Positions 412 to 45,232 of a stretch of DNA of 64,000 bases are shown in pieces. This DNA comes from Candidatus Cloacimonadales bacterium. Its GTDB lineage: Bacteria > Cloacimonadota > Cloacimonadia > Cloacimonadales > JAFGVF01. The position numbers and the translations under genes are program-made. The DNA lies in assembly GCA_963667035.1 (NCBI GenBank), contig OY762964.1:1664001-1728000 (forward strand), read 5' to 3'. The notes under the pieces are model-generated. The model worked only from the letters and a program-made list of their open reading frames with translations, was not told where the DNA came from and ran no database searches. Position 1 is the stretch's first letter. Each line of letters starts with the position of its first letter.

Positions 412-484
412 CCCTGCCCCCCTATAGCTTACGCTATTTATACCTTCTATAAATCCCCTTGCTGTGTAGATACTACCAACCCGT

Positions 485-571
485 TGTTTTTGCACTGTGA
501 TTCCACTGTGAACGCACTATCCACGCACTGAAACACCGGGTTAACAGTGCCTGCACAGTGCAAAAACAGTG
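485..571. repeat. Palindromic array with 11-bp period
   Basis: CACT at 493, 504, 515, 526; AGTG at 546, 557, 568; perfect 15-bp inverted repeat 485-499/554-568. Confidence 0.85.
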
Positions 572-824
572 GAAAGATTCTGCTTTAGTGAAACATCTAC
601 TCAGAGAGAAAAAATGGAGTTCTATTGTGATGAATCATTTGAAACAACATTCAGGTTTTGGAGCAAATAAATGTCTGCAAAGTTAAAGGCATAGAGATAA
701 TCGTTAAGGATTTGTATGTAAACCGTATTACTATCAGCGAAGGAAAGATAAAGATGTGAATAGTAATCAAACATGCTGTTGACAACTTTCAACGAAAATT
801 AAATATGTTTAACAAGGAGACAAA

Positions 825-35432: not shown

Positions 35433-35849
35433 TTATTGTATGATTATTTTTTTAGCAGGTTCAGGTTCAACCTTGGGAATCTCAATCGTGAGTACTCCAT
35501 TCTTCATGGAAGCTGTAATCTTTTCAGAATCGCAATTCTCACCTAATGAGATTGAGCGCTTGTACTCACCAAGGAATCTTTCCTGTCTATGATATTTCTT
35601 ATCTTCTTTTTGTGTCTCTGTTTTTGCCTCAATAGTCAATACGTTATCAGCAACATTAATATTAACATCTTTCTTTTCGAATCCCGGAAGTTCCGCATCA
35701 ATCAAGAACTTGTCATCTTCCTCTCTGATGTCTAAGGCCATCCCTGAGCTATTCTCTGAAAAGAAATCATCTCTAAAGAAGTTCTTAAACAGATCCATCT
35801 TTGGAAAGTCAAGGAATGAGTCGAATAAGCTTACTGGATAATGTCTCAT
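35433..35849 (-). CDS. Hsp20/alpha-crystallin small heat-shock protein
   Basis: AELPGF.K.DV, ERFLGEYKRSI, NGVLTIEIPK. Confidence 0.93.
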   Translation of the reverse strand: MRHYPVSLFDSFLDFPKMDLFKNFFRDDFFSENSSGMALDIREEDDKFLIDAELPGFEKKDVNINVADNVLTIEAKTETQKEDKKYHRQERFLGEYKRSISLGENCDSEKITASMKNGVLTIEIPKVEPEPAKKIIIQ

Positions 35850-35860
35850 GTTTTCCTCCT

Positions 35861-36277
35861 TTAGTTTATTGCTATTTGTTTTGGCTGAAGTTTCGCAGCT
35901 TTTGGTATTTTAACTATCAACACGCCATTTTCCATTTCAGCACCGATTTTTTCAGTATCAAAACTGTTATCCAATCTAAAAGTTCTCTTTAACTCCATAT
36001 TACATCTTTCTCTTCTGATATATTGCTTTTCATCCTCATCAACCGATTTCACCTCTATTGTGAGGACATTGTTCTCGACTGAAATGTTAACATCGTCTTT
36101 ATTGTGTCCTGGCATCTCAGCCTGAATAATATAAGCATCTTCCTCTTCAAGAATATCAACTTTCATCGGAGAAACCCGATGAGTTGGGGTTAAATCAAAA
36201 TCATTGAATGCACCAAGCATTCTTTCCATTTCCCTCATTGGGAAGTATCCGGGTCTGCTCTTTACTAAGTATCTCAT
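35861..36277 (-). CDS. Hsp20/alpha-crystallin small heat-shock protein
   Basis: AEMPG, RRER, NGVLIVKIPK. Confidence 0.93.
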   Translation of the reverse strand: MRYLVKSRPGYFPMREMERMLGAFNDFDLTPTHRVSPMKVDILEEEDAYIIQAEMPGHNKDDVNISVENNVLTIEVKSVDEDEKQYIRRERCNMELKRTFRLDNSFDTEKIGAEMENGVLIVKIPKAAKLQPKQIAIN

Positions 36278-41972: not shown

Positions 41973-42340
41973 AGAGTCACCTCCACTATAATCTTCTTCA
42001 ACATCTCACAAATTTCGCTAACATCTATCCCTAAAAAGGATACGCTTTTAGCGAACTCTCTCACATCTTTTTCGTAGAATTCAGCTCTCCTCATTTTTAG
42101 AAGCTTTTCTTTTGCATCTTCCGAAATATAAAAACCAAGTCCTCGTTTCTTATAGACAACTCCATCGTTTACTAATTCCGAAAAAGCACTAGCTACCGTC
42201 TGAGGATTTAGGCGATATGCCTGAGCTAAACTCCTGATTGATGGTAATGAATCATCCGAACTATATGTATCGGATAGAATTCCTTCTTCAACCAGTTTCT
42301 TTAACTGCAAGTAAATCGGCATGTCTTTGGTAAATTCCAT
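41969..42340 (-). CDS. GntR-family (YtrA subfamily) regulator
   Basis: PIYLQL, LPSIRSLA, NPQTV, RGLG; short C-terminus; ABC operon context. Confidence 0.92.
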   Translation of the reverse strand: MEFTKDMPIYLQLKKLVEEGILSDTYSSDDSLPSIRSLAQAYRLNPQTVASAFSELVNDGVVYKKRGLGFYISEDAKEKLLKMRRAEFYEKDVREFAKSVSFLGIDVSEICEMLKKIIVEVTL

Positions 42341-42356
42341 TTATCGCCTCCTAGTC

Positions 42357-42382
42357 TGGTGTTATGGTTTACCAATACACCA
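42357..42382. promoter_or_regulatory. putative YtrA-type operator overlapping the gntR promoter
   Basis: Palindrome TGGTGT-N14-ACACCA beside minus-strand TTGACA at 42392-42387. Confidence 0.6.
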
Positions 42383-42499
42383 CAGATGTCAAGCACTTTG
42401 TTTTATTTTTGTTTCTCCAACTCTCCTCTACCCCGATAAACAAAGGCATTTAGGTCTAGTATTTTTATTTTTATTCCCTACCACAAATGACCTTTATGA

Positions 42500-42520
42500 A
42501 TACTTTAAGGGTGACTCGCC
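42500..42520 (-). repeat. orphan copy of the IS terminal repeat
   Basis: ATACTTTAAGGGTGACTCGCC matches 44104-44125 except for one T. Confidence 0.8.
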
Positions 42521-42536
42521 AATTAAATGAACATGT

Positions 42537-42720
42537 CATGAACCTATTACGCCCCTTCTGCAACACTGTTAAAGACCTAAGAAATTCTATGGTGAAAGTT
42601 ATCCACACGATGTGGACAACTTTGGCTTTCGCCAAGGAGGGTCCAAGGAGGCTCCTTAGTGGATCCAATCCGGTTCCAATGTTTTTAACAGTCGCCCTTA
42701 AGAGAAGCAGAAGGATCATG
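42537..42720. ncRNA. candidate structured RNA or ssDNA element of unknown class
   Basis: Nested stems 42554-61/42707-14 and 42565-76/42681-92 enclosing three hairpins; strand unresolved. Confidence 0.45.
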
Positions 42721-43806
42721 GATACATAAAAGGGTGGTGGGAGGTAACCCTTTAAAGTATCCAGTTTTGTAATTAGCAAGAAAATTCTTTCTAAAAGAGT
42801 CGCAGAATATGGGGATAAAGCATAAATCAGCAGTTTTAGCCTTAAGTCCATATTCTGCGACTAACTCAACGGGGGCCTTGTTGCCTCTAGTCCTGATTTT
42901 ACGAATATGGTTGTAGTAAGTCTGATATATGAAGACTTTACTAATGAAAGATATAATGTCTCTAAACTCTTCATAATCATATAATTCTTGTTCTATGGTG
43001 TTGTGAAAGCTTTCTACATCACTGTTGAATGTTGGAGATTTTGGAGGTATGCGAACATGAGTTACTCCATGTTTGTTTAAGATTTCTTCAAAGATTGTGA
43101 CTCTACTATGAAGAGGTTCAATAAATTCAGTACCGTTATCTGTTTGGAAAGTAATATCATTAGGAGAGCAATGTAACCCTTTTAGGTATTCAATTACGTA
43201 ATCCGCAAAAATGGCAGTTGAGAGATCATCTTTATAGTTTGTAAAGCCTAGAAATACCATTCCTGTCTTGTAATCTCTGGCAGTAATCTGAAACATAGGT
43301 ATTGCACCTGACTCATATGCTCTACTCTGTTTAGCAATATCATTTAGGTATTTAACATCGAGCTGAAGTTTCTGCATAGGCTTATAGTGTGCTCTTACAG
43401 CTGACATATCTTTCTTTTTCTTGTATCTTGTTTTTCTTTTCAAAACAAGCTTATGTCTCTTTAATACCTTATGAACGGTCTTTGCTGAGTAATGCAATTT
43501 CAGATTATTTACTATAGTGCGAGCTCCTGGATTGCCACGATCTTTACGTTCTTTGATGATAGCATCTTCAATATCTTTTGGCATCTTCAGAGGATGTTTC
43601 TGACCAACCCTGGACTTATTCTCGAGACCTGCCTCTCCAAGCTCAAGATACCTATTTCTCCAGAGACGAACAGTCTTCCTGGTTGTGCCTAACATCCTAG
43701 CTGTTTCAGATATGCCATGCTGCATTGAAAGAGTATACATCTGATACCGTAAAAGAGTTCTTGACTTAAATTCTTTACTGAGTAATCTCATCTCTAAATA
43801 TGTCAT
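42685..43806 (-). CDS. IS481/IS1202-like DDE transposase (HTH + integrase core)
   Basis: ISETARMLG...TVRLWRNRY HTH; QLDVK, QTDNGTEF, NSDVESFH; YYNHIR. Confidence 0.9.
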   Translation of the reverse strand: MTYLEMRLLSKEFKSRTLLRYQMYTLSMQHGISETARMLGTTRKTVRLWRNRYLELGEAGLENKSRVGQKHPLKMPKDIEDAIIKERKDRGNPGARTIVNNLKLHYSAKTVHKVLKRHKLVLKRKTRYKKKKDMSAVRAHYKPMQKLQLDVKYLNDIAKQSRAYESGAIPMFQITARDYKTGMVFLGFTNYKDDLSTAIFADYVIEYLKGLHCSPNDITFQTDNGTEFIEPLHSRVTIFEEILNKHGVTHVRIPPKSPTFNSDVESFHNTIEQELYDYEEFRDIISFISKVFIYQTYYNHIRKIRTRGNKAPVELVAEYGLKAKTADLCFIPIFCDSFRKNFLANYKTGYFKGLPPTTLLCIHDPSASLKGDC

Positions 43807-44125
43807 AAGTGTCAGTATATCTGATTCTTAGATTGCTGGCACTCTTTTTTTGTAGGATATATATAATCCAAGTATTCAAGGCGAATGTTTCATCCCCTCC
43901 ATTCGCTACGCTCATTGCGTGGATGAAACATTTACTCTGCATTTCTCTAGAAATAATCCAATTCATTAAAATATTCCTTTAACTGATTAACTGCATTTTT
44001 ATCAAGTATATAACCCATAAAGACACCGGTCTCTATTGATGATATTATATCATGTAGTTTACGTAGTATTTTTCTTGGTAAAACTTTGACCTCCCTAGGG
44101 TGGATACTTTTAAGGGTGACTCGCC
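42739..44125 (-). mobile_element. insertion sequence, 1387 bp, with 17-bp target duplication
   Basis: Imperfect 25-bp IRs (20/25) at 42739-42763 and 44101-44125; ATACATAAAAGGGTGGT at 42722-42738 and 44126-44142. Confidence 0.9.
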
Positions 44126-44422
44126 ATACATAAAAGGGTGGTCCCTACACTTTAATTTTCTATTAGCCATACAGTTAGTGTTTATACCAAGTTAGTAGTG
44201 GTAAAATTCGTGTAACAAAAGTAGTGTTTAAGTGCATTTAATTGATGTTAGTAGGATTGGATATTCGTTTCGGGGGTAAATATGTAAGAATAGTCCGACT
44301 GAGATCTATCTTTATATATGTAATCCAATTAGCAGGATATAGCAGACTGATTGTGATAAAATATTCTTGACACTACACCTGTTTCAATACAAGTCATTTT
44401 GGATACACGAAATAGGATAAAT

Positions 44423-45232
44423 ATGAGCTTAAAAAAGATAATATCGCAGATAAACAGTTATGGATATGAGCCAATAGACCTTAAAGGGACTATTATCAAA
44501 CCGGATGAGTTTCAAATCATTGCCGGTCCATGCACTATAGAATCCAAAGATGACCTTGAACTGATAGCCCAAGAACTCAATGAAATTGGAATTCGTCTCA
44601 TAAGAGGTGGTGCTTTCAAGTTAAGGACCAATGCCAATTCTTTTAACGGATTGGGAAGTAAAGCTCTTGACTGGCTACAGGAAGTCGGAAGGAAATATAA
44701 TCTGGTAACAGTAAGTGAGTTAACCGACATATCTCATCTGGATGAGATGATTGAAAAGGTTGATATTCTTCTTATCGGCACAAGGAATATGCTTAACTAT
44801 CCACTCTTGACCGAAGTTGGGAAATCCAAGAAACCGGTAATCTTGAAAAGAGGTATGAGTAGTACTGTCGACGAGTGGTTACAGGCTTCGGAATACATTC
44901 TCAAAGAGGGTAATTCAAAACTGATATTCTGTGAACGAGGAATAAGAACATTTGATTCCATTACTCGTAATACTTATGATATTACAGCAATCCCACTTTT
45001 ACGACAGAGTCTGGTATTTCCTGTGATTGGTGATCCTTCTCATGCAACCGGTTTGAGAGAATTGATAAAACCCATAAGTTTAGCTACAGCATCCGTAGGA
45101 GCAAGCGGACTCATTGTGGAAGCCCATGTGAATCCTGAATCCGTGATAGTTGACTCTCGGCAAACAATTTGTTTATCAACTTTAAAAGAAATTTCGGAAC
45201 AATCTCGTAAAATAGTAGAACTTCTTAATTGA
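44423..45232 (+). CDS. aroF: DAHP synthase, class I-beta type
   Basis: IAGPCTIES, RGGAFK.RT, LKRG, CERGIRTF, DPSH. Confidence 0.85.
   Translation: MSLKKIISQINSYGYEPIDLKGTIIKPDEFQIIAGPCTIESKDDLELIAQELNEIGIRLIRGGAFKLRTNANSFNGLGSKALDWLQEVGRKYNLVTVSELTDISHLDEMIEKVDILLIGTRNMLNYPLLTEVGKSKKPVILKRGMSSTVDEWLQASEYILKEGNSKLIFCERGIRTFDSITRNTYDITAIPLLRQSLVFPVIGDPSHATGLRELIKPISLATASVGASGLIVEAHVNPESVIVDSRQTICLSTLKEISEQSRKIVELLN

Follow-up and report, generated by a model that had tools for sequence, protein, structure and literature searches.

The stretch at positions 42,537 to 42,720 of the window is probably one copy of a dispersed DNA repeat, non-autonomous and about 190 bp long, that is restricted to one genus, is built as an interrupted palindrome and serves as a landmark for the insertion of an IS481-like element. 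The window is the whole 64,000-nt piece of Candidatus Cloacimonadales DNA that was analysed. Among the explanations considered, an element that acts at the DNA level was ranked first and a folded single strand second. An earlier note on this DNA had proposed a novel non-coding RNA or folded-DNA element that was the target, the cargo or the RNA partner of the adjacent insertion sequence (IS). The role of target was borne out, and those of cargo and RNA partner were not.

The nested pairings that first drew attention to the stretch are present: CATGA/TCATG (42537-41/42716-20), CCTTCTGC/GCAGAAGG (42554-61/42707-14) and ACTGTTAAAGAC/GTTTTTAACAGT (42565-76/42681-92). The three inner hairpins also exist, with the correction that those at 42595-42623 and 42622-42635 overlap by two bases. 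The stretch is locally enriched in GC as described, with 45.7% against 36.2% and 31.7% in its flanks, and on either strand its 184 nt give a better fold than any of 200 dinucleotide shuffles (z of -4.09 on the plus and -4.29 on the minus strand). It lies between a GntR-ABC operon and a gene for DAHP synthase that are transcribed away from each other. The orphan IS end and the 15-bp target site duplication (TSD) reported beside it are real (Table 1). The description of the stretch as non-coding needs amendment, since no stop codon ends the transposase frame within the IS; the frame continues to the stop at 42685-87, so that the last 36 nt of the stretch belong to it. Each IS copy draws a different C-terminal tail for its transposase from the flanking DNA in this way (here window 42685-42737). 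Two open reading frames that cover the stretch, of 126 and 80 aa, were not accepted as genes, as one of at least 100 aa covers the element in only 1 of 93 copies after overlap filtering. Elsewhere in the window, at 35433-36277, there are two adjacent open reading frames of 138 aa that, from their motifs, resemble small heat-shock (Hsp20) proteins.

Table 1. Positions of the repeat copy, its parts and the neighbouring insertion sequence in the window.
Feature	Position	Strand	Remark
Orphan left-end stub of IS481-like element, 25 nt	42497..42521	+	outer end faces the repeat
15-bp target duplication of the older, left insertion (putative)	42522..42536	.	from the TSD length of intact IS copies
Left arm of repeat	42537..42578	.	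pairing of 42561-42578 conserved across subfamilies
DnaA box 1, perfect TTATCCACA	42599..42607	+	consensus TTATnCACA (PMC5742627)
DnaA box 2, inverted, one mismatch, 3 bp from box 1	42611..42619	-	
Central small hairpin (inverted copy of the subfamily hexamer)	42620..42637	.	the element's axis of mirror symmetry (42628.5) is its loop
Four imperfect direct units, 11-bp period	42636..42679	+	
Right arm of repeat	42679..42720	.	42679-42696 conserved pairing; holds the stop codon of the read-through transposase frame
15-bp TSD, left copy	42723..42737	+	
IS481-like insertion sequence, 1389 bp, TG...CA ends	42738..44126	-	25-bp imperfect terminal repeats 42738-62 and 44102-26
Transposase (HTH + rve), 373 aa here	42685..43806	-	357 aa common to all complete IS copies
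15-bp TSD, right copy	44127..44141	+	

The stretch is one of ten intact copies in the genome that contains the window (the host genome, G000). The copies are intergenic and 87-100% identical, and three decayed relatives were spotted by eye in addition. When the genomes of the phylum were searched with a pattern for the core motif, 10-11 sites were found in the host genome and 64-66, 53-54 and 12-13 sites in three congeners; copy number thus differs about six-fold within the genus. Beyond the genus, a single site occurred in 5 of 228 other genomes of the phylum and none in the rest, and the reversed control gave none. A covariance model built from 42 copies matched 33, at least 50, at least 49 and at least 50 places in the four genus genomes (50 candidates were scored per genome), and it matched nothing in 57 other genomes of the order. 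The anatomy was studied in detail on 93 distinct copies from fetched loci (10, 59, 16 and 8 per genus genome), a set from which eight sites that lacked the array or lay outside the genus were left out. The repeat was absent from viral contigs, searched with the exact pattern, and from plasmids, searched with blastn. In metagenomes the exact pattern was found in 15 stretches from two datasets. A full-text search of the literature returned no description of the repeat, and a listing in the supplement of some genome paper is possible. The ends of the copies fray, and neither sharp ends nor a TSD of the repeat's own was found.

The order of parts within the element is constant: an arm, a linker of about 20 nt, a pair of inverted 9-mers separated by 3 bp, a small hairpin, four direct 11-bp units and the complementary arm. 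Of 42 copies selected across the subfamilies, 41 can be aligned gap-free, and the lone exception is exactly 11 nt shorter. The arms, the small hairpin and the residual pairs between them share a single mirror axis, which falls in the loop of that hairpin. The 11-bp units vary among 13 subfamilies. The hexamer of a subfamily occurs five times directly and once inverted, beside box 2, and the inverted hexamer follows the units of its own subfamily (3.8 against 1.8 of 5 nt). The arms pair at 11.5 of 16 positions, the value for controls being 7.7, and 82 of 91 copies share one register; arm sequences are unrelated between subfamilies. Two or three copies in the host genome have the core flipped relative to the arms, and in a congener the arms are mosaic. 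An inversion in place at the window copy is not borne out: three contig sets of one sample hold one opposite-strand joint (42559/42696), which fits another copy with flipped arms, and no piece in these sets spans the region of the window copy.

Both 9-mers keep the motif TTATnCACA, and its positions other than the free "n" are near-invariant across the 93 copies. This motif is the DnaA consensus (PMC5742627). In 53 of the 93 copies the free positions of the two boxes make no pair, be it standard or wobble, with G-G and A-G tolerated; in boxes that otherwise keep the motif, this fits recognition by a protein rather than a helix. DnaA is likely to bind the pair. The same boxes cluster around dnaA in the host genome and at its presumed origin. 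At 2,569,069-2,569,290 of that genome, near the GC-skew minimum and 250 kb from dnaA, five perfect DnaA boxes lie together, which marks the presumed origin. An inverted box pair is common across bacteria, and the period-11 array accompanies it in only 2 of 80 such loci, both titled Cloacimonadales, so that the pair alone does not make the element. One genome of a sister genus has the same pair, inverted and with the 3-bp spacer, at the start of dnaA, without array or arms (L014:1501-1524). It is possible that this pair was the source of the core.

The copies hold 11 of the 57 perfect TTATCCACA boxes of the host genome (19%), and in one congener well over 100 box-like sites are carried by the repeat. 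Tens of mobile-like elements with two DnaA boxes each could thus load the replication initiator. A related but quite unlikely explanation is that the copies are selected by the host as DnaA control sites, similar to DARS or datA, in which a high-affinity inverted pair followed by low-affinity sites at 11-bp period, dispersed along the chromosome, would titrate or recycle DnaA. The 11-bp units do match the box in one register (4.28 of 9 positions against 3.01 +/- 0.17 for permuted units), and the distance of the ten intact copies from the presumed origin is always 0.49-0.98 of a replichore (p = 0.03). The paired boxes of E. coli DARS1 and DARS2, as far as the available portions of the sources describe them, are likewise close together, with an inverted pair followed by weaker co-oriented matches (PMC6868365, PMC11317965, PMC5742627). 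However, DARS are single-copy with a 5-bp spacer, while the repeat has a 3-bp inverted spacer and 10-65 mobile-like copies, and the "double box" of E. coli with 2-3 bp between the boxes is modelled as a tandem pair (PMC11317965, in the portion available) and not as the inverted pair seen here. Of the features of DARS and datA, the consensus inverted pair is present in the repeat; the 5-bp spacer and a third good co-oriented box are absent, the units averaging 4.3 of 9. The array also begins 14 bp, not 11, after box 2, and the presumed origin has a decayed copy at a distance of about 100 kb. Against selection by the host there is further the roughly six-fold range in copy number within the genus, and just 5 of 58 testable box-pair sites of the congeners are syntenic with the host genome, none of them with an element there. 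DnaA-box likeness was seen in none of the other 14 period-11 families described below (all p >= 0.098), and the box-pair family taken alone gave p = 0.16.

The reading as a DNA-level element has also to be weighed against that of a folded single strand. In that case the element would be a multi-copy structured RNA, or an ssDNA hairpin similar to attC or REPINs, that is independent of the IS; a rod with a central hairpin would be recognised, and the boxes would be incidental or secondary. This is rather unlikely. In its favour, the window copy folds at a z of about -4, and the whole element has one mirror axis. Homologues were gathered across the genus as the earlier note had suggested, and in counts that ignore relatedness two-sided changes are seen at 17 of the 18 pairs of the arms and at 5 of the 7 of the central hairpin, compared with 1 of the 9 of the box hairpin. 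The covariation score is 0.424 against 0.156 when shuffled and about 0.10 when slid. Among the 14 closest copies, 13 of 14 two-sided pairs are located in the arms. The proposal of an undescribed element with a conserved fold is thus supported in part, by the arms and the central hairpin and not by the hairpin formed by the DnaA boxes. Wobble pairs in the central hairpin favour the plus orientation, by 11 to 0 in 12 subfamily representatives and, for G-T, by 112 to 6 over all members.

Several results speak against a folded strand. The strand bias of the hairpin rests on few independent events, because an invariant T supplies many of the wobbles (24 of 41 cells at one hairpin pair are T-G). In the arms, wobbles are symmetric between strands (110 against 95, p = 0.33). 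The largest subfamily folds weakly, at z of -2.9 to +1.1 in six copies, and a copy's own arms pair modestly better than swapped ones, beating 55-83% of the others. The box hairpin tolerates mismatches in more than half of the copies, as given above. Orientation to genes is free: of 82 copies with both neighbours called, 25 lie between divergent and 12 between convergent genes, and 21 and 24 are co-directional in one and the other orientation. A non-coding RNA is thus not borne out, given copies in every gene context and orientation and arms whose wobbles are symmetric between strands. Nine promoter-like sites were found in 42300-44450, where 7.3 are expected by chance, none of them within 450 nt of the stretch, and no terminator-like site was seen near it. 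Comparison with the families of Rfam 15 (6S, SRP, group II intron, OMEGA and others) gave no match in the window at the gathering score, and the best hits of a local scan (E of 2.3 and 6.2) were far under threshold, so no known RNA family matched the stretch at either threshold. The covariation of arms and hairpin fits a folded single strand as well as it fits inverted binding sites or otherwise symmetric DNA.

The link of the repeat to the IS is a matter of position. Six complete copies of the IS481-like element are present in the host genome, three of them with a 15-bp TSD. The transposase best matches the NCBIfam model NF033577 (IS481) at 144.5 bits, which is under the cut-off of 224, and scores 25 bits with the ISNCY_2 model. 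TSDs of 2-15 bp are given for the IS481 family (PMC10045372, in the portion available), a range that includes the 15-bp TSD of the adjacent IS. IS ends flank 10 of the 10 intact box-pair copies, compared with 8 of 127 other period-11 sites. When all 33 IS ends of the genome are considered, a tract of period 11 follows outward within 250 nt at 19 of them; the figure for random long-intergenic positions is 11%. Of the 5 IS ends found in two congeners, 4 adjoin the element. The distance is also set. For 12 of the 15 junctions tabulated from three genomes, the distance to the axis is 106-110 nt, whichever side the IS is on and whichever of its ends is involved; for the others it is 97, 170 and 170 nt. 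The two insertions in the window, at 42521 and 42738, are almost mirror images about the axis. No partner copy of the duplication assigned to the left one was found within 2.6 kb. Some seven junctions that involve one arm type are nearly the same in sequence, and three have upstream DNA in common; these were probably inherited together, which leaves about 5-6 independent events for the subfamily and means that p-values overstate the association. With that caveat on the p-value, 7 of 8 IS ends beside other period-11 families have a mirror axis 96-108.5 nt away, in a range of 95-110 nt considered, against 15% in a matched null (p = 1.3e-5). Over all IS ends, 17 of 33 have an axis at 95-110 nt compared with 16% in the null, and 16 of 33 lack this geometry. 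The claim that the stretch is a target of this IS is supported by these counts and by the set distance. That the IS lands at a set distance of about 97 or 107 nt from the axis, in palindromes of unrelated sequence, suggests that it recognises their shape or a protein bound to them.

It is hardly credible that the stretch serves this IS specifically as an RNA partner or as cargo. The direct adjacency in the window and the IS ends beside all ten copies of the host genome would suit such a role. However, the stretch lies beyond both IS ends and the TSD, and therefore is not cargo, and 4 of the 6 complete IS copies have no adjoining box-pair element. In three congeners with 12-66 core sites each, one of them 99% complete, no match to the transposase was found; the element is independent of the IS, given that congeners hold it (about 65 copies in one) without such a match. 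Conversely, transposase relatives of 26-41% identity occur in six other genomes from which the core motif is absent, and eight such loci have no tract nearby. A co-occurrence of element and transposase clade was thus not observed. A search for transposase relatives in a wider collection of genome contigs confirmed none.

Some further features of the IS were noted. At loci L010, L023 and L111, nested IS-end stubs are offset from one another by about 10-13 nt, which would fit an IS that re-inserted into its own end one helical turn outward. At L002, L005 and L008 (663.7, 1785.6 and 759.4 kb of the host genome), a deletion derivative of about 165 bp joins a right-end stub to 150 bp of the left end, and the upstream DNA is the same at all three. 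Two hairpins lie inside the IS, at window 42798-42862 and 43884-43932, the first or the second of them within the 3' portion of the transposase gene and the other upstream of that gene.

The repeat belongs to a wider class. The host genome contains 94 tracts of period 11, compared with 0-3 at periods 8, 10, 13, 14, 16 and 17. With their homologues they make 137 sites in 15 families, of which 135 sites are intergenic, and the seven families inspected are all long imperfect palindromes. The covariance model of the repeat scores other period-11 sites weakly, with 28 further matches of at most 53.9 bits. Another family, with 36 sites in the genome and no DnaA boxes, has a member at window 473-587. 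In samples from other genomes, a congener had 39 tracts in 400 kb. Three other genera, sampled at 160 kb each, had 7, 6 and 1, another had 1 in 80 kb, and four genomes had none. Between a congener (G001) and the host genome, both neighbours are kept in 3 of 25 gaps that bear tracts, compared with 16 of 31 long gaps without tracts (p = 0.002), and the three tract gaps that keep synteny are empty in the host genome. One such empty site, of a sister family, corresponds to an insertion of about 210 bp with no clear TSD, in flanks of 70-80% identity. Because tract gaps lose synteny and sites are empty in the host genome, period-11 repeats come and go and mark breakpoints. They mark synteny breaks and assembly gaps in an uncultured phylum.

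The class is also associated with an orphan gene family. Its proteins of about 150 aa (e.g., L010:1816-2268) have 13 matches in the host genome and 23 in G001, are present in 28 of 41 genomes and reach up to 38 matches per Cloacimonadota genome, with 240 representatives at 50% identity. Six of 11 full-length orphan genes of the host genome start 223-281 nt from a tract and point away from it. Across the genus, a tract lies upstream at 14 of 28 orphan loci (8 with the box pair) and downstream at 0 of 24, and outside the genus an upstream tract is found at 2 of 22 loci. The protein matched no Pfam, NCBIfam or PHROG family and gave no Foldseek match. Its structural model is confident (pLDDT of 96), and the nearest chains in a structural comparison are rich in ribbon-helix-helix proteins known to bind arrays of repeats (TraM, Arc, Omega), at Z of 4.0 or less, which is noise level. 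The orphan protein is a lead, and the best candidate, for the hexamer binder.

For an element that acts as DNA, the following mechanism can be proposed. In the duplex core, binding sites for proteins would be lined up along one face of the helix, the box pair being occupied by DnaA and the hexamers by a second protein. This other protein may be a member of the orphan family, which is often encoded 220-330 nt away. The element, covered by protein or prone to form a cruciform, would place the transpososome just outside the arms, where a 15-bp staggered cut would be made about 97 or 107 nt from the axis. IS bodies would be deleted later and their end stubs would remain. Recombination at the arms would flip the core, swap the arms and break synteny. 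The repeat, itself non-autonomous, would be spread by some enzyme.

These elements can be joined in a broader reading that is doubtful as a whole. Cloacimonadota would hold undescribed selfish modules, palindromes of about 200 bp that are 11-bp-phased arrays for a dedicated, multi-paralogue orphan DNA-binding protein with a new or RHH-like fold, each subfamily having its own hexamer. One lineage would have captured a DnaA box pair and reached 10-65 copies per chromosome as a mobile DnaA sink. The IS481-like transposase would read the geometry of the complex and not its sequence, inserting 9 or 10 helical turns from the axis.

Dispersed palindromic repeats and insertion sequences that seek repeats are already known kinds of element, and the repeat lacks defining features of each of REPINs, MITEs, DARS and IS-encoded RNAs. 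Among the closest described systems are REPINs, or REP doublets, with their RAYT transposases. In the available portions of the sources these are likewise non-autonomous, intergenic and palindromic, occur in tens of copies and show compensatory hairpin changes (PMC3116915, PMC3733652). It might then be supposed that the repeat is an ordinary REPIN moved by a resident RAYT or Y1 transposase, and that IS ends gather at it since long intergenic repeats are safe places to insert. The host genome does contain thirteen Y1_Tnp matches, IS200-like and RAYT-like (L392-L396), and several families of REP-like palindromes, which often adjoin copies of the repeat. Nevertheless, this is very unlikely. REPINs, as described there, have conserved ends around a variable spacer, and the repeat has the reverse, a conserved core between variable, mosaic arms; it has no GTAG/CGTC-tagged REP ends and carries DnaA boxes and a phased 11-bp array. 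No RAYT link was found, as a box-pair copy flanks 0 of 11 Y1 loci in the host genome and any period-11 site lies within 1 kb of 2 of 11. A safe-haven effect would also leave the fixed distance to the axis unexplained.

Two repeats of other bacteria resemble the one described here in part. PINSR of Prevotella intermedia is also about 188 bp long, intergenic, lineage-restricted, without a known cognate transposase and located at rearrangement breakpoints (PMC4755523). The likeness is one of description, and the available portion of that source describes PINSR without terminal inverted repeats, DnaA boxes, phased units or IS targeting. The BrickBuilt MITE of Porphyromonas gingivalis is also intergenic and multi-copy, with internal direct repeats and inverted ends (PMC4596501). 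According to the portion of the source available, its tandem units are of 23 nt and its terminal inverted repeats (TIRs) match the IS5 family; the repeat here has 11-bp units in fixed number. Its arms do not match the ends of the adjacent IS, the one IS of the genome with which they were compared for TIRs of the MITE type.

On the side of the IS, the closest system is that of the ISAjo2-type IS1202 elements found beside XerC sites (PMC10132070). These are related to IS481 and insert at a fixed distance from a chromosomal landmark, and a bound host protein has been proposed. As presented in the available portion of that source, they have transposases of 441-457 aa, TGT ends and 5-bp TSDs, and they insert in one orientation, 5 bp from a defined site; no target is reported there for the group with long TSDs. 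The IS described here differs in having 357 aa, TGG ends and a 15-bp TSD, and in inserting with either end about 100 bp from the axis of palindromes that are diverse in sequence. If the broader reading given above were true, it would represent a new mode of target choice and a candidate answer to how long-TSD IS481/IS1202 elements pick their targets.
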